DNA of 28,151 nt from the IMG/VR virus record IMGVR_UViG_3300037045_000044, positions 1 through 28,151 of that record, one strand, 5' to 3'. The notes under the pieces were generated by a model. That model saw only the letters and a list, made by a program, of their open reading frames with translations, had not been told where the DNA came from and did not search any database. Positions 14,029 to 28,151 of this stretch are shown one piece after another; positions within the stretch are counted from its first letter, which is position 1, and every line of letters starts with the position of its first letter. The translations under genes were made by a program, and so were the position numbers. Source of the DNA: a virus (Duplodnaviria > Caudoviricetes).

Positions 14029-16422
14029 ATGGGATTTGACACGGACAACGACCTGGAGTCTCAATACGAAGAGATTGATCCGGATGACCTTGAGGCCTGG
14101 GGCGATGAGTCCACCGTCAGCGACGAAGACTTCGGAGACAACGAAGACGAGCTGAGCCAGGAGTTCGTCGACAAGCTCATCGACAAGATCATGGCCTTCG
14201 GAGAAACCTTCACAGGACGAACCCTCCACTCCTACCAACTCCCATTCGCGCGGCGCGTCATCGAGTCGATCCTCGTCAACGACGGCTCCGAGATCACCGC
14301 CCTGGCCGCACGCCAGTCGGGCAAGAGCGAGATCATCGGGTTCGTCATGTCCACCCTCATGGTCCTCCTGCCCCGTCTCGCCGCGATGTACCCCGACCTC
14401 CTCGGCAAGTTCAAGGACGGCGTCTGGATCGGCATGTTCGCCCCCGTCGAAACCATGGCCGAGACGCTCTACGGACGTACCGTCAACTTCCTGACTTCAG
14501 AACGCGCGAATGAAGTCCTCGGGGATCCTGAGATCGACGACATCACCGCGCGTACCCCCGGCGTGACCAAGGGAATGAAGCTCACCAAGTCCGGCTCGAC
14601 GCTACTCATGATGACCGCCAACCCGCGGGCGAAGATCGAGTCGAAGTCGTTCCACATCATCATCATCGACGAGGCCCAGGACTCGGATGACTTCGTGGTC
14701 TCGAAGTCGATCAGCCCGATGGGCGCCTACTACAACGCCACCATCGTCAAGACCGGCACCCCCACCACCACGAAGAACAACTTCTATCGCGCCATTCAGC
14801 TGAACAAACGTCTTCAGACCGGGCGCCGCGCCCGCCAGAACCACTTCCAGTGGGACTGGAAGGACGTCGCCAAGGTGAACCCAAACTACGAGAAGTTCAT
14901 CAAGAAGGAGATGCTCCGAATCGGTGAGGACTCCGACGAGTTCCTCTTGAGTTACTGCCCAACACCTGAGACCCGCATCCTCACTGCCGACCTCCGGCAT
15001 GTCCCTGCGGGAGAGGTCAAGGTCGGGGACAAACTCGTCGGGTTCGACGAAGAGCGGCCCGGAAAGGGGCTACATCGTAAGTTCCGTGAGGCCGTTGTGG
15101 AAGACGTGGGGAGGCTTATCCTGCCGTGCTACACGATGACGCTGTCGGACGACACCGTAGTGACCTGCTCCGGCGACCACCAGTGGTTGGTGTCCACAGC
15201 TGGGAGACGCACCGTCTGGAAGCGCACGGCTGATCTTGTGGCCACAGACCGCATCTTCAAGGCGACAGACGTCTGGGAGACCGCAGACAGCTACGACGCG
15301 GGGTATCTCGCGGCGGCGTTCGATGGGGAAGGCTCCTTGGCCCGGCGTACCGACGGTCAGGTCGTCGGCCTGACGATGGCGCAGAAGCCGAATGCGATGC
15401 TGGCTCACGTCGAGGGGGTACTCACGCGTGAGGGGGTGCAGTACGGGAAGTACGACAACAACGTCGAGCGCAGCGGTGTCCATCACGTCAGCGTCAAGGG
15501 CGGAGGCGCAGCCATCGCCCAGTTCCTCGGGAAGTACCGCCCGAAGCGCCTTCTGGACAAGTTCCGCGTGGACGATATGGGGTCCATCGGTAGGCACGAC
15601 CACAAGGCCACTGACTTCCGCCACCCGTCAGTCGTCTCAGTGGAGTTCGTCGGGGACCGAGAGGTGGTGGCCATCAAGACTTCGACCAAGACGTACGTGG
15701 CGGAAGGGCTCGCGTCCCACAACTGCTGCCGGTGGCTGCTTGAGCGAGGCATGTTCGTCTCCTCCTCAGTGCTCGACCACACCAGCCCCAGCACCTTGGG
15801 CGATCTCACAATGGAGACGGTGAAGATCTGGCAGTCGAGCCCCTGTGTCGTGGGGATTGACCCGGCGCGAAAGTCCGACTCCACGGTGGTCACCGTGATG
15901 TGGGTGGACTGGGACCGGCCAGACGAGTTCGGGTACTACGAGCACCGGATCCTCAACTGGCTGGAGATCCAGGGCGACGACTGGGAGGAGCAGTACTACC
16001 AGATCGTCAACTTCCTCTCGAACTACGACGTCCTGGCAGTGGCCGTCGACGCCAACGGCGTCGGTGACGCGGTCGCTCAGCGTCTCAAGCTGCTACTCCC
16101 GCGGGCTGATGTCATCCCAGTGACGTCGAGCGCGAGCGAGCAGTCGGCCCGGTACAAGCACCTCCAGGCGCTGATCCAGCGGAAGATGCTCAGCTGGCCA
16201 GCGCACGCCAAGTCGAGGCGCCTGCGCACCTACCGCCGCTTCGTCCAGCAGATGGGCGACGCCGAGGTGACGTTCAAGGGCCCGAACTTCTCCGTCGAGG
16301 CCCCCGACGAGGCCCACGCCCACGACGACTACGTCGACAGCCTGTCCCTCGCGGCCTCTCTGACGAAGGATCTCATCGCCCCTCAGGTTGAAACCAGCAA
16401 CAACTTCTTCTACGCACGCTGA
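14029..16422 (+). CDS. terL: terminase large subunit, intein-containing
   Basis: Walker A AARQSGKS, Walker B IIIIDEAQ, nuclease GIDPA and HDDYVDS; no SD (possibly leaderless). Confidence 0.95.
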   Translation: MGFDTDNDLESQYEEIDPDDLEAWGDESTVSDEDFGDNEDELSQEFVDKLIDKIMAFGETFTGRTLHSYQLPFARRVIESILVNDGSEITALAARQSGKSEIIGFVMSTLMVLLPRLAAMYPDLLGKFKDGVWIGMFAPVETMAETLYGRTVNFLTSERANEVLGDPEIDDITARTPGVTKGMKLTKSGSTLLMMTANPRAKIESKSFHIIIIDEAQDSDDFVVSKSISPMGAYYNATIVKTGTPTTTKNNFYRAIQLNKRLQTGRRARQNHFQWDWKDVAKVNPNYEKFIKKEMLRIGEDSDEFLLSYCPTPETRILTADLRHVPAGEVKVGDKLVGFDEERPGKGLHRKFREAVVEDVGRLILPCYTMTLSDDTVVTCSGDHQWLVSTAGRRTVWKRTADLVATDRIFKATDVWETADSYDAGYLAAAFDGEGSLARRTDGQVVGLTMAQKPNAMLAHVEGVLTREGVQYGKYDNNVERSGVHHVSVKGGGAAIAQFLGKYRPKRLLDKFRVDDMGSIGRHDHKATDFRHPSVVSVEFVGDREVVAIKTSTKTYVAEGLASHNCCRWLLERGMFVSSSVLDHTSPSTLGDLTMETVKIWQSSPCVVGIDPARKSDSTVVTVMWVDWDRPDEFGYYEHRILNWLEIQGDDWEEQYYQIVNFLSNYDVLAVAVDANGVGDAVAQRLKLLLPRADVIPVTSSASEQSARYKHLQALIQRKMLSWPAHAKSRRLRTYRRFVQQMGDAEVTFKGPNFSVEAPDEAHAHDDYVDSLSLAASLTKDLIAPQVETSNNFFYAR
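14956..15723 (+). mobile_element. intein (256 aa) with LAGLIDADG-type motif in TerL
   Basis: Starts CPTPETRILT (block A), has CSGDHQW (block B) and YLAAAFDGEGSL (block C), ends YVAEGLASHN followed by Cys +1. Confidence 0.93.
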
Positions 16423-17444: not shown

Positions 17445-17455
17445 CCCACAGGCCG

Positions 17456-17477
17456 TGTCACCGGGGCACCGTAGACT
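17456..17477 (+). promoter_or_regulatory. RecA-NDp/PafBC-like promoter for a leaderless HNH mRNA
   Basis: TGTCAC-N10-TAGACT, then 7 nt and ATG at 17485. Confidence 0.5.
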
Positions 17478-17484
17478 AAGTGTC

Positions 17485-18177
17485 ATGCGCGCAACTCCCT
17501 TCGACGGACCCTTGTTCACCGCCTGCACCTACCAGAAGCCTCCCGGTCGAGGTCACCGCCTCCCCAAGCTGATCGCCCCCGGAACCAAGGTCGCGCGGCT
17601 CACCGCCACCGACACCTTCGGATTCAAGACGCGGCGCGACGGGCGTCAGCGGTGCTTCCAGCTGTTCCTTTGCGACTGCGGCGGCGAGCTTCTCTGCATC
17701 CCTGGGACAGTAGTCACCGGCAACACCTCCTCGTGTGGCTGCGCGCACACGGAGACAGCCAAGGCCTTGATGACCACGCACGGGGCCACGGTTGACCGCT
17801 CCAGCGAGGAGTACCGCCGCTACCGCGCGAATCTCACGCACGTGCGTCGAGCGAAGATTATTGAGACCGCGTTTGAGCAGATTTCCCCTGAACAGTACGC
17901 GAAGCTTCTTGAAGAGCATTCACACAAATGCTGGATCTGTGAACAACCTGCCCGCTTGGTCTGGGACCACGTGCAGCCACTAGCGAAAGGCGGAACCCAC
18001 ACAGTGGACAACCTCCGCCCCGCTTGTGGCCCGTGCAACTCCCGCAAGTCAGACCTCTGGCCGTTCACTGACGCTCGTAGAGAGCAGATTGCTGAAGAGG
18101 TGCGGGCACTACGCGCCTCCCTGAGTGCTATCTCAGACACGGACGGGTTGGAGGTGAGCGCGCATGTCATCCATTGA
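17485..18177 (+). CDS. free-standing HNH homing endonuclease
   Basis: CWIC...WDHVQPLAKGGTHTVDNLRPACGPCNSRK HNH; N-terminal CDCG...GNTSSCGC module; more A/T-ending codons than neighbours; overlaps the portal start by 14 nt. Confidence 0.9.
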   Translation: MRATPFDGPLFTACTYQKPPGRGHRLPKLIAPGTKVARLTATDTFGFKTRRDGRQRCFQLFLCDCGGELLCIPGTVVTGNTSSCGCAHTETAKALMTTHGATVDRSSEEYRRYRANLTHVRRAKIIETAFEQISPEQYAKLLEEHSHKCWICEQPARLVWDHVQPLAKGGTHTVDNLRPACGPCNSRKSDLWPFTDARREQIAEEVRALRASLSAISDTDGLEVSAHVIH

Positions 18178-19853
18178 TTTCTCTCCCGCATCGTACCGAG
18201 CTAGCTCCTCCGATCTGACAGTCTCCATCAGCCCCCTCGGCCTCGTCGAGTTGGCCGATGAGGAGTTTGAAGTTCATGGCCCGCGCCTAAATCGCTACAG
18301 TCTCAACTGGGCGATGTACTTACCTGGGTCATCATTATTCCTACCGGCGACCCACTGGTGAATCGCAGCTCGCGTTCAACTACGTGCGCGCATTCACCGA
18401 CTACCTGATCAACTTCACGTTCGGTCAGGGCGTCCAATTCGCCTCACCCAAGCCCACTGAGGCCATCATCCCTGACCTTCTCAAGAGGGTCTGGGAGGTG
18501 GACAACAACAAGGCCAATCTCATGTGGGAGATCGGGCAGCAAGGTGCCGTTTCAGGTGACTGCTTCATCAAGGTCGCCTACGAAGAGGCGCACGAGGACA
18601 CCATCGGCCGATTCCACCCTGGCCGTGTCCGGGTTCTTCCGCTGAACTCCAGCTTCTGCTTCCCCGAGTTCCACCCCCATGACCGCGACCGGCTGATTCG
18701 ATTCAAGCTGAAGTACCGCTTCTGGGGCACCTCTCTTGAGGGAACCCGCCAGGTGTTCACCTACACCGAGATCATCACGGATGACCGGATCGAGGAGTAC
18801 GTCAACGACGAACTGATCGACTCGCGCGAGAACCCGATGGGCACCATCCCAGTCGTCCACATCCCCAACACGCGGATCGCTGGGTCCCCCTGGGGCCTCT
18901 CCGACTGCAACGACATCCTGTCGCTCAACAGGCACTACAACGAAGTGTCGACCGACATCGCGGACATCATCAACTACCACTCCGCACCGGTCACCATCGT
19001 CTCCGGCGCCAAGGCCTCCACCCTGGAGAAGGGCGCCAACAAGGTCTGGGGCATCCCCAACAAGGACGCCAAGGTCTACAACCTCGAAGGCGGCGGCACC
19101 GGCCTGGCCGGGGCGATGACGTACATCGAGGGCATCAAGCGCTCCATGCACGAGATGGTCGGCGTCCCCGAAAGCGCACTGGGCCAGATGCAGCCGATCT
19201 CGAACACCTCGGGTGTCGCGCTGTCGATCATGTACCAGCCGCTGATGAACAAGTGGCGCCAGAAGACGGCTCTCTACGCCAAGGGCCTTGAGCGCGTCAA
19301 CGAGTTGATCATCCTCCTCATCGCCATCAAAGAGCCTGAGATGCTCGTGTGGCAGGAGACCGACCCGGTTGCACTGCGCCCCGGGCAGTTCCCCGCGCTC
19401 GACCCGAATGACCCGCAGACCTACCGCTCGGAGGCGCACTTCCCGCCGCCGCTGCCGTTCGACAAGCTGGTCGTCCTCAACGAGATCCAGGCCAAGATGG
19501 CCATGGGCCTTGAGTCGAAGGAAGGCGCACTCCGCGCACTGGGCGAAGAGTTCCCCGACGAGAAGATGACCGAGATCCGCGAGGAGCTGGTCGAAGAGGC
19601 CAAGGCCGACGGCGCTCTCGAACTCATCAAGTCTCAGATTCAGCTTGCCACCATGTTCATGACCGGCATGGATCCGATGGGCGGAGAAATGGGCGGCGGC
19701 GCTGGTGGCGAAGAGGGAATGGCCCCGGCTGGTCCGGTAATCCCGCCCGAGGGAATGCAGGCCATCATGCAGCTTCAAGCAGAGCTGGTCACCCGCGCCT
19801 ACGGCACCAAGGCCGCTCAGTCGAGTTTCGCGCTCCCTCAGAAGGACGAGTAA
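18164..19853 (+). CDS. portal protein encoded in two frames (18164-18319 joined to 18324-19853 by skipping 4 nt; about 561 aa)
   Basis: ORF1 MSSIDFSP...RYSLNWAMY (SD GGAGGTG) continues in the +1 frame as LGHHYSYRRPTGESQLAFNYVRAFTDY; the rest has SPP1-like portal motifs (IPVVHIPN, WGLSD, SNTSGVAL). Confidence 0.9.
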
Positions 19854-20006
19854 GAGATTGGCACAAGTCTCAGTGACTTTTACTGGGACAAAGTGCCCCT
19901 CTCAATAGCAATCTGGACTCGTCAACATTTCTGTTGGTCACATTTGGGCTACGCGGTTCTTCGGAACGGCACTTCGGACAACGACCTATCTACACGAAGG
20001 TAAAAC

Positions 20007-26331: not shown

Positions 26332-26519
26332 GACTCGCGCTCTGCGATCAAGAGCTGTGGCTTCAGGGGCTCGGGTATCGGGCGCCCCATGACGTGGGCG
26401 GCGTGTGCGTGCTTGGCGGCGCTTCGATCCGGGTAGACCCCGCCAGCCCAGCCGCACGAGCAGTCGGAGAAGTAGGCCCCACCGTTGGTGCGCTCAGGTA
26501 TGAATCTGTGGTCCGTCAC
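26328..26519 (-). CDS. small protein (63 aa) with CSCGW...H..H motif
   Basis: GTGA overlap. Confidence 0.7.
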   Translation of the reverse strand: MTDHRFIPERTNGGAYFSDCSCGWAGGVYPDRSAAKHAHAAHVMGRPIPEPLKPQLLIAERES

Positions 26520-26824
26520 GGCTGGCCTTCGATCTGGTCGGCGCGGCGCTCCAGCCACACATCGACGCTGTAGAACGTCTCCGGATCTTCGGGGTCAGGG
26601 AGGTTCCATGACCCCCGTCGTGCGCGCCGCATCTCCTCCACCGCGTCCTTCAGCGCCTTGGCGGCGATCAGCGGGGCGACGGCGTTGAGGGCCTCGCGGG
26701 CTCCCTGGAGTTCCAGGGCGCGGTTGGCGCCGTCCGTCTCGGCCCAGTCAGTGGGGCCGACGACGGTGTTCCATGTGGCTTCAGCGGCCTTCTCCACCAT
26801 CTCGTCGGTGAATAATAGGCTCAT
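26516..26824 (-). CDS. hypothetical protein (102 aa)
   Basis: TDEMVEKAA...AREALNAVAPLIAAKAL..A...WL..RADQIE pattern typical of actinophage small proteins; codon 4 is TTA. Confidence 0.8.
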   Translation of the reverse strand: MSLLFTDEMVEKAAEATWNTVVGPTDWAETDGANRALELQGAREALNAVAPLIAAKALKDAVEEMRRARRGSWNLPDPEDPETFYSVDVWLERRADQIEGQP

Positions 26825-27488: not shown

Positions 27489-28151
27489 ATGGACTTCAAC
27501 AGCACGTACCGAGCGCTCGTCGTCAACAACGTTGACCCCGAGGGATTGGCGCGCATCCAGGTTCAACTCCCGCAGCTGATGGGCAGCTCTGTCTCAGGTT
27601 GGGCGCTGCCGATTCCGGCGGGCAGTAAGGCAGTCCCGGAGATCGGCTCTCAGGTCATCGTCGCCTTTGAGGGTGGCGACCTCGGGCACCCCCTCTACTA
27701 CACGGACGCCCCCACGGTGGCCGCTCAGGAGACAGCGGACGCGGCTCAGGATGCAGCCGACTTGGCGCAAGGCGCAGCGGACTTGGCTCAGGATGCAGCC
27801 GACTTGGCGGCGGGAAAGACCACCGTGGCGGCGGCCAACCCGACTCCTTCGGACGCGACGGGAAAGCCGCTCAACGCTGTCTGGGACGTCTACTCCGGCA
27901 GCGCGTGGCAGCGGCGATTCGTCCTGACCTCGCTCAGCCCAGCCACCTGGACAGAGGTGAAGGCCGGGCAAGAGGTGCTTGGCGCCAACTCGGTGGGCAG
28001 CGCCCAGATCATCGACTTGTCGGTCGGCACCCCTGAGTTGGCCAACCTCGCCGTGACGGACGCCAAGGTCGCGGATATGTCGATAGCTAAGCTCACCGCG
28101 CCCGCCGGGAACCTGTTCCCCGACACTGTGGTCAACACCCTCACGGACCAA
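27489..28151 (+). CDS. baseplate central spike (gp5/VgrG-type OB fold) fused to a fibre-like extension; truncated by the window end
   Basis: Hand-translated, open to the end: YRALVVNNVDPEGLARIQVQLP...SGWALP...VPEIGSQVIVAFEGGDLGHPLY, then AQxAADL heptads and 10-residue repeats (ANSVGSAQII/DLSVGTPELA/NLAVTDAKVA). Confidence 0.88.
   Translation, partial: MDFNSTYRALVVNNVDPEGLARIQVQLPQLMGSSVSGWALPIPAGSKAVPEIGSQVIVAFEGGDLGHPLYYTDAPTVAAQETADAAQDAADLAQGAADLAQDAADLAAGKTTVAAANPTPSDATGKPLNAVWDVYSGSAWQRRFVLTSLSPATWTEVKAGQEVLGANSVGSAQIIDLSVGTPELANLAVTDAKVADMSIAKLTAPAGNLFPDTVVNTLTDQ

Follow-up and report, generated by a model that had tools for sequence, protein, structure and literature searches.

A 4-nt insert in a phage portal gene, probably passed over by a short ribosomal hop and likely derived from a homing HNH cassette

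The portal gene of IMG/VR virus record IMGVR_UViG_3300037045_000044, an uncultured viral contig of 28,151 nucleotides (nt) with 64.5% G+C and a CheckV completeness of 29% in the IMG/VR record, is divided between two reading frames by the 4-nt insert TTAC. The whole contig is referred to below as the window. Judging from the gene and its relatives, ribosomes most likely skip TTAC by a 4-nt hop between two matched UAC codons. TTAC is a genuine insert that diverging strains have inherited, and purifying selection acts on the two halves of the portal gene. Its origin is likely the self-immunity of a homing cassette carrying the HNH endonuclease gene directly upstream, an account argued by analogy and better supported than the gating of portal synthesis by the rare UUA codon that the first-pass annotation of the sequence had proposed. 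The coordinates of all features, together with the insert designs found in relatives, are given in Table 1.

Frame 0 of the portal gene reads ...NWA ATG (18314) TAC (18317-19) TTA (18320-22) and closes at TGA 18359-61. The portal body is encoded in the +1 frame from TAC 18321-23 onward (YLGHHYSYRR...), is open over 509 codons and carries the Pfam domain SPP1_portal (PF05133, E-value 1.6e-22). Upstream, the body frame is bounded by TAA 18288-90, and its earliest canonical start is GTG 18384, which lacks a Shine-Dalgarno (SD) sequence; both limits, and all coordinates for frames, stops and starts in the first-pass annotation, were reproduced from the sequence on re-computation. The junction reads ATG TAC [TTAC] CTG GGT. 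The best 80 of approximately 594 IMG/VR relatives were kept for comparison (66-72% amino acid identity over the portal body), and the peptide NWAMYLGHH is uninterrupted in 80/80, the insert being seen in none of these; the peptide of the first portal part is near-identical among them. The tblastn matches of the two portal halves to Streptomyces phage BRock overlap by a single codon, the Tyr, and a DNA alignment with BRock and GiJojo leaves a gap of 4 columns at the insert. All three comparisons agree on an insert of exactly 4 nt, as had been claimed. The same annotation had likened the junction to Bxz1/E3-like portals; the closest cultured relatives found were instead Borockvirus-like Streptomyces phages (portal approximately 57% identity; 67-69% amino acid identity to BRock-like portals over the N-terminal part). 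A megablast comparison of cultured phages with window positions 17900-20000 returned no match.

The insert was found outside the window in metagenome contigs from Logan: X1 (225 nt), X2 (314 nt) and X5/X6 (151 nt), assembled from wastewater metagenome runs of at least three other studies, span 18317-18323 with 0 indels. These contigs differ from the window at 8 positions within 18148-18472, every one a third-position synonymous change in the correct frame. The upstream single-nucleotide polymorphism (SNP), at 18223, is synonymous in frame 0, and 7/7 downstream SNPs (18332-18389) are third-position synonymous in the body frame. Four of these (18332, 18335, 18338 and 18347) fall within the frame-0 tail, where a frame-0 reading gives 3 residue changes and 1 Leu>Leu, indicating that frame 0 is not the selected frame there. 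Six lie before GTG 18384, and 18324-18383 is therefore translated in the body frame. Compared with insert-bearing relatives, the N-terminal part shows a proportion of nonsynonymous differences (pN) of 0.07-0.14 against a synonymous proportion (pS) of 0.76-1.18, and pN is far below pS on both sides of the insert, the comparisons being ungapped and the body values rough. TTAC is one of 256 possible 4-mers, and a Saccharothrix prophage with a 55%-identical portal has exactly this 4-mer at the corresponding site. A search of viral contigs with the exact flanks gave 0 matches, so that no near-identical IMG/VR record is visible.

These observations bear on two readings in which the frame change would have no decoding function. 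An assembly or sequencing error, or an inactivated portal in a defective element, would be the usual explanation of a frameshift in an essential gene, and the window is a metagenome-assembled fragment (CheckV 29%); the insert-less form would read ATGTACCTG. This is very improbable, given the identical insert in contigs of at least three other studies, the 8/8 strain differences that are synonymous in the right frames, the recurrence of the same design in 22 viral contigs and 9 prophages, and the pN well below pS on both sides. A split portal, made as a 52-65-residue peptide plus a body initiated at GTG 18384 or at a non-canonical start, is less probable still. The open reading frame (ORF) 18384-19853 is indeed open from GTG; however, no SD precedes 18384, no ATG, GTG or TTG occurs in the body frame over 18291-18383, all six SNPs (6/6) of the stretch 18332-18374 leave the body-frame residue unchanged and hence mark translated sequence, and the YLGHH directly after the junction is invariant in relatives.

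The alignment of homologs suggested in the first-pass annotation as a check of recurrence was informative, since 4-nt inserts were recovered at the same site in other viral contigs and in the Saccharothrix prophage. A degenerate pattern with 7 nt rather than 3 between the ATG and the Leu codon identified five more IMG/VR contigs (approximately 44% G+C) with 4-nt inserts, reading ATG TAT [TAAC] TTA or ATG TAT [TGAC] TTA. With a variable-gap pattern, the insert-bearing contigs rose to 22 in total, these five included, carrying 4-, 7- or 8-nt inserts at the window's site (site 1). A second insertion site, DEEF|EVHG (site 2), lies approximately 60 nt upstream and holds inserts of 6-9 nt, each led by a stop codon; the equivalent position of the window (approximately 18266-18271) is uninterrupted. 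Two contigs, L085 and L087, are interrupted at both sites, and their portals would need two recoding events each. A scan of a genome collection yielded 14 loci, among them 9 prophages with 1-3 inserts each and 3 uninterrupted loci; the prophage carriers are GC-rich and belong to Streptomyces, Kitasatospora, Saccharothrix and Actinomadura. The inserts of the prophage loci (L232-L243) measure 4-8 nt, are led by UUA (once by AGA), occupy five spots and are flanked by matched codons. These prophages are cultured, potentially inducible carriers of inserts. A metagenome scan found 11 portal loci among the 120 matches listed, all of AT-rich types already seen, whereas the remaining 109 had matched by chance; these 120 included no close relative of the window with a GC-rich genome.

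Across the family, insert lengths are 4, 6, 7, 8 and 9 nt, and the inserts occupy a small number of fixed positions in the 5' part of the portal gene. The first codon of every insert is a stop in the AT-rich phages and UUA or AGA in the GC-rich genomes, and the last triplet is readable by the tRNA of the preceding codon in nearly all of approximately 20 designs. The take-off and landing pairs are TAT/TAC, GAA/GAA, GAG/GAG, CAC/CAC, CTT/CTC and CGA/CGY, with TAC/TAC in the window. Pairs that are synonymous without being identical (TAT/TAC, CTT/CTC, CGA/CGY) suggest a match at the level of the tRNA rather than the scar of a duplication. Imperfect landings also occur: AAC, GAC, TAG and CTC match at positions 2-3 only, and L242 has GGG.

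Table 1. Features of the portal region of the window and insert designs in related portal genes (inserts in square brackets)
Feature	Position	Strand	Carrier	Description
Portal gene overall	18164-19853	+	window	two halves in different frames around the 4-nt insert
Portal part 1	18164..18319	+	window	52 codons, frame 0; ATG 18164, SD GGAGG 18151-55, up to the take-off codon
Take-off codon UAC (Tyr)	18317..18319	+	window	final frame-0 codon common to homologs
4-nt insert TTAC	18320..18323	+	window	UUA 18320-22, rare A-site codon; UAC 18321-23, matched landing triplet
Portal part 2	18324..19853	+	window	509 codons + stop (19851-53), +1 frame, resumes at CTG 18324
Frame-0 tail	18320..18361	+	window	65-residue product, TGA 18359-61, if UUA is decoded normally
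5' hairpin	18291..18315	+	window	ATCGCT-A-CAGT / loop CTCA / ACTG-GGCGAT, 10 bp, dG -10.7
3' stem TGGGTC/GACCCA	18325-30/18349-54	+	window	present in the minimum free energy fold
HNH endonuclease gene	17455..18177	+	window	240 residues; Pfam HNH PF01844, E-value 2.3e-9
TAT[TAGGTAC]CTA	site 1		11 contigs	7 nt
TAT[TAGTTAC]CTA	site 1		5 contigs	7 nt
TAT[ TAGTTTAC ]CTA	site 1		1 contig	8 nt
GAA[TAGTGAA]GTT	site 2		L011	
GAG[TAAGTAG]GTT	site 2		L085	
TTC[TGACTC]GAG	site 2		L087	
GAA[ TAGCCCGAA ]GTT	site 2		L104/L110	
TAT[TTAC]CTC			Saccharothrix prophage L239	same design as the window
CAC[TTACCAC]TGG and CAC[TTAGCAC]TGG			GC-rich prophages	
GAG[ TTACCGAG ]GAA			GC-rich prophages	
GAG[ TTACCGGG ]GAA			GC-rich prophages	
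GAG[TTATGAG]GAG			GC-rich prophages	
CTT[TTACCTC]GCT			GC-rich prophages	
CGA[TTACGY]CTG			GC-rich prophages	
CGA[ AGACCCGC ]TTG			GC-rich prophages	

In the proposed mechanism, the very rare UUA 18320-22 would occupy the A site undecoded; peptidyl-tRNA-Tyr would meanwhile detach from UAC 18317-19 and pair anew with the identical codon at 18321-23, and translation would resume at CTG 18324. The two UAC codons are non-overlapping, with 1 nt between them. The hop product would be ...NWAMYLGHH..., the same as in the uninterrupted homologs, with the junction peptide ...YSLNWAMYLGHHYSYR; normal decoding of UUA would yield the 65-residue fragment instead. Several inserts cannot be decoded by +1 frameshifting, namely the 8-nt inserts (L108, L235/236/238/242 and L232), those with the in-frame stops of L087 and L104/L110, and site 2 of L085, where frame 0 meets a TAA and frame +1 a TAG. 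A hop of the peptidyl-tRNA to the last triplet of the insert decodes all of these and restores the invariant junction, which makes short translational hopping the most likely mechanism.

The principal rival in decoding is a programmed +1 frameshift of the Ty3 type, in which UUA would stay unread, Tyr-tRNA would take UAC 18321-23 with U18320 skipped, and the product would read ...NWAMYYLGHH.... From 18321 onward the +1 frame is open, slow decoding in the A site (UUA, 0/446 Leu codons) is a classic stimulus, the AT-rich TAT TAA C and TAT TGA C would simply read AAC or GAC, and the 7-nt TAG types are likewise open in the +1 frame. However, tRNA-Tyr is unable to re-pair on ACU, an SD-like element at the prfB spacing is absent (no GGAGG-like run in 18300-18316), and an extra residue at this highly conserved junction occurs in 0/80 homologs. 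The shift also cannot decode the 8-nt inserts, site 2 of L085 or the inserts with in-frame stops, and it leaves the match of the insert's last triplet to the take-off codon unexplained. It is considered possible but unlikely. The hop over a rare UUA between matched UAC codons, as first proposed in the first-pass annotation, thus emerged from the comparison with relatives as the best-supported reading, and for the 4-nt case of the window it is held as probable, with the +1 shift as the less likely alternative. A tiny intron, RNA editing and transcriptional slippage were dropped as candidates, the inserts being heteropolymeric and 4-9 nt long, and so was an alternative genetic code, given the frame changes and given that stop codons act as stops elsewhere.

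With respect to the leading codon, TTA accounts for 0/446 Leu codons in the 26 rightward ORFs (5682 codons) and for 2/545 Leu codons in the 37 ORFs with a third-position G+C fraction (GC3) of at least 0.8. Of these two occurrences one is codon 4 of 26516-26824(-), the other codon 19 of 27890-28144(-); the earlier survey by eye had correctly found none rightward and the first of these, and had missed the second. As in the phiHau3 terminase type, an insert led by UUA thus stands in a genome that avoids UUA. In bldA-type hosts, tRNA-Leu(UAA) is developmentally limited. The insert could accordingly be mainly regulatory, with portal synthesis tied to the charging of tRNA-Leu(UAA) and sensing host physiology, a purpose compatible with the hop and close to the throttle or host sensor of the first-pass annotation. 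UUA is the rarest sense codon in the window, prophages of Streptomyces and related genera carry UUA-led inserts with no HNH gene beside them, and the same proposal is published for the phiHau3 terminase, in the portion of PMC10732093 that was available. Against this, no tRNA gene was found within the 28-kb window, and at the A-site position, which in relatives is TAA, TGA, TAG, TTA or AGA, the AT-rich lake-phage relatives hold TAA, TGA or TAG and would sense no tRNA; their inserts also come and go with a mobile HNH gene. The stop codons in relatives and the linkage to the HNH gene favour a selfish-element origin over regulation, which is accordingly regarded as rather improbable; a regulatory purpose is not needed to explain the insert, and dependence on UUA is possible as a side effect.

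The HNH gene is likely, from its sequence and position, the homing endonuclease of a cassette. Its stop codon (18175-77) lies 14 nt inside the portal ORF (overlap 18164-18177). Homologs (43-53% identity) stand directly upstream of the portal in 19/23 insert-bearing IMG/VR contigs (the 22 site-1 carriers and L011) and in 0/79 insert-less contigs, 7 of which have less than 900 nt of upstream flank and are not fully judgeable. The other four carriers (L092, at 2169-2360, L100, L101 and L105) retain a 63-residue remnant ORF with the N- and C-terminal ends of the HNH protein and have kept a 7-nt insert, a picture resembling 'hit and run', in which the nuclease is lost once homing has taken place. 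Across the 102 IMG/VR loci, the HNH gene is thus found sporadically between conserved genes (19/102), as expected of a homing cassette. A tree of portal bodies was built from 82 distinct sequences, bodies shorter than 400 residues (L084, L093 and L098 among them) being left out. On this tree the insert state changes at least 7 times and the HNH state also 7 times, and in independent pairs insert and HNH gene change together in 5/5 cases (sign test p = 0.06, the best possible with five). L088, with insert and HNH gene, and L025, with neither, share 98-100% DNA identity over 1750 nt from 15 nt past the insert and approximately 70% identity over the 135 nt before it; this step in identity marks a recombination boundary at the insert, in a relative rather than in the window itself. 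L091 and L065 differ by a clean indel of approximately 650 nt at the HNH gene. The step in identity between L088 and L025 is what would be expected if the nuclease cut the insert-less allele close to this strongly conserved coding stretch and the cassette (HNH gene, portal 5' end and insert) were then copied in. By the proposed route, the insert would destroy the target site of the adjacent mobile HNH endonuclease and so protect the carrier, and the cassette could move into phages lacking the insert while its own copy stays uncut, as in T4 mobA/gene 60.

In the window, the HNH gene has a GC3 of 0.73 against a neighbouring-gene mean of 0.88, and the 3' half of the HNH gene together with the portal 5' end has the lowest GC3 of the region (0.67), under all 450 52-codon windows of the other genes. 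The portal 5' end of the window is not nearer to insert-bearing than to insert-less relatives (identity 0.79 vs 0.80 and 0.67 vs 0.64), giving no sign of recent transfer from the lake-phage cassettes. A motif before the portal start, ACGGACGG..GGAGGTG, is common to the window and the lake-phage cassettes despite a 20-point difference in G+C. The GC-rich prophage inserts that lack an HNH gene fit either loss after homing or a regulatory use of the phiHau3 type.

A possible stimulator of the hop is the 5' hairpin, which ends 1 nt before the take-off TAC 18317. By analogy with the 5' stem-loop of gene 60, it would refold behind the ribosome and pull the mRNA forward. It occurs in 8/13 distinct insert-bearing upstream 30-mers and in 0/54 insert-less ones with the same encoded peptide (Mann-Whitney U test, p = 2.6e-4, uncorrected for relatedness). 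The loop is CUCA or UUAA, the 8 carriers include all 4-nt types, and in the window the pairs rest on the rare codons AAT (7/195 Asn) and AGT (13/390 Ser). The nascent peptide is identical in insert-less genes, and no take-off stem-loop fits in 4 nt. The hairpin is carried forward as a candidate stimulator, by analogy a better one than the 3' stem to which the first-pass annotation had pointed; that stem exists and is part of the minimum free energy fold, and its role as a signal is unsupported (z-score -1.4, not conserved in relatives). In the lake phage L089 (47% G+C), 29/30 bases before the take-off codon are identical to the window, synonymous sites elsewhere being saturated; this fits a constraint either on the hairpin or on this stretch of DNA serving as a site for a nuclease or for recombination.

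Several points weigh against the hop, the cassette origin or the hairpin. The case for the hop is drawn from sequence comparison, none of the sequencing runs listed for the stretch being an RNA run, and a +1 shift adding an extra Tyr also gives an open frame for the 4-nt insert. The AT-rich 4-nt landings AAC and GAC are not cognate to tRNA-Tyr (positions 2-3 only), so that in these types a hop is no simpler than a +1 shift by which Asn or Asp would be added. The efficiency of synthetic stop-hops is reportedly about 1%, and decoding a single gene would take two or three hops in some relatives. Synthetic stop-hops are also described as inefficient in the available part of PMC5009743. The bridging contigs have a depth of 2-3.8, and X5 and X6 appear to be duplicate entries of a single data set. 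For the cassette, the sign test on independent pairs reaches only p = 0.06, cutting of the insert-less site by the HNH protein is supposed by analogy, and the low-GC3 tract runs approximately 50 codons beyond the insert, so that the cassette boundary in the window is not sharp. A homolog of the window HNH protein is absent within 3 kb in 12 GC-rich prophage loci, and no Pfam family was found in six upstream ORFs of the prophage loci. The hairpin shows no covarying pairs, is missing in 5/13 insert-bearing types and could just have come along with the cassette; at the prophage GAG|GAA site, insert-less sequences too have hairpins before the take-off, and no general claim is made for hairpins.

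The gene order around the insert is large terminase (terL, 14029-16422), two small ORFs, the HNH gene (17455-18177), portal, a scaffold-like ORF and a capsid-like ORF, and the synteny of this module matches BRock and kin. The terL gene carries an insertion of 256 residues (14956-15723) at SY|C(G/C)(K/R)WLLERG, which is absent in L092. It runs C...SHN and is followed by Cys, and it matches Intein_splicing (E-value 0.0019) and LAGLIDADG_3 (E-value 0.0035), both below the curated cut-offs. By these features it is probably an intein with a homing endonuclease domain, a second mobile element of the packaging module.

On balance, the family is somewhat favoured as a natural class of 'mini-bypass', in which inserts of 4-9 nt, led by stop codons in AT-rich phages or by UUA/AGA in GC-rich genomes, would be hopped between matched codons, would have spread in actinophage portals as the self-immunity arm of HNH cassettes and would persist after loss of the nuclease; the UAC-U-UAC of the window would then be the shortest programmed bypass known, with the 5' hairpin as driver. 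An insert that ruins a nuclease target would be tolerated because the ribosome can ignore it, and recoding would thereby be linked to the spread of a selfish nuclease. What would be new is the shortest version of programmed bypassing, a new gene (portal) and a clear mobile-element context; if true, this would be a miniature natural relative of the rare T4 gene 60 bypass. Programmed bypassing in print comprises gene 60 and its homologs and yeast mitochondria, with candidates otherwise in a few Streptomyces phage terminase genes, and in the sections available of a 2016 review shorter natural counterparts 'have long been presumed' (PMC5009743). In this locus and its relatives, dozens of naturally varying inserts are found at fixed positions within a single essential gene. 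They vary in length (4, 6, 7, 8 and 9 nt), in whether a stop or a rare sense codon leads, and in how well the landing triplet matches (perfectly or imperfectly), and so form a mutant series supplied by nature, from which the least that a ribosome needs in order to hop could be worked out. The family also matters for annotation, where such genes are called frameshifted or split and their contigs scored defective.

In the full-text literature, a body that leaves most subscription journals outside it, no bypass or hop sites in portal genes, no natural gaps of 4-9 nt and none travelling with an HNH gene outside gene 60 were found. The T4 MobA homing-endonuclease cassette is reportedly treated in work by Bonocora from 2011, which PMC5009743 cites. 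Gene 60 cassettes combine MobA with a stop or hungry codon where the gap begins, as far as the accessible text of the preprint goes (bioRxiv 10.1101/2022.08.31.505936), and in mobA/gene 60 the insert protects its carrier from the nuclease, according to the part available of the Manning and Atkins preprint. The present locus resembles T4 gene 60 in that an essential phage gene is interrupted by an insert, probably untranslated here as well, that the take-off and landing codons match and that a stop or rare 'hungry' codon follows the take-off, and in its sporadic, repeatedly gained distribution with 'hit and run' remnants (the L092 group here); it resembles T4 mobA, by type and position, in an HNH gene directly upstream that overlaps the 5' end of the interrupted gene. 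It differs in a gap of 4 nt (4-9 nt in the family) as opposed to 50 nt, or 20 nt in the shortest published clade, in a gap that can form no stem-loop and has no SD, and in the gene concerned, portal rather than topoisomerase.

Relative to +1 frameshifting in prfB, Ty3 and antizyme, a slow A-site codon (stop or rare) and a net +1 change of frame are shared, whereas re-pairing (UAC to ACU) and an SD at the prfB spacing are lacking and the 6-, 8- and 9-nt inserts of the family do not fit. In E. coli, synthetic 'stop-hops' and hops at hungry codons (Weiss 1987, Kane 1992, Gallant and Lindsley, cited in the available parts of PMC5009743 and the Manning and Atkins preprint) likewise use matched codons around a slow codon, with peptidyl-tRNA re-pairing a few nt downstream independently of frame; those hops were engineered or accidental and reportedly low-level, whereas the use here would be natural and conserved in an essential gene. 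A likeness in sequence context is seen in phiHau3, a candidate for UUA-mediated bypass together with two prophages (Smith 2013, as cited; Antonov et al. 2023, PMC10732093, in part), whose type of terminase gene has UUA-led gaps of 10 nt and 7 nt and, in the portion of PMC10732093 available, a junction peptide seen in E. coli. Both have a high-GC actinophage setting, the hosts of the present family being likely actinobacteria, and both have a UUA-led insert that is missing in homologs at a highly conserved junction, a proposed landing codon, and a bypass favoured over frameshifting since extra residues are not tolerated. Unlike phiHau3, with 10 nt (7 nt in the prophage) in terL, the window has a gap of 4 nt in the portal gene with take-off and landing codons 1 nt apart, an adjacent HNH gene, and AT-rich relatives with stop codons in place of UUA.

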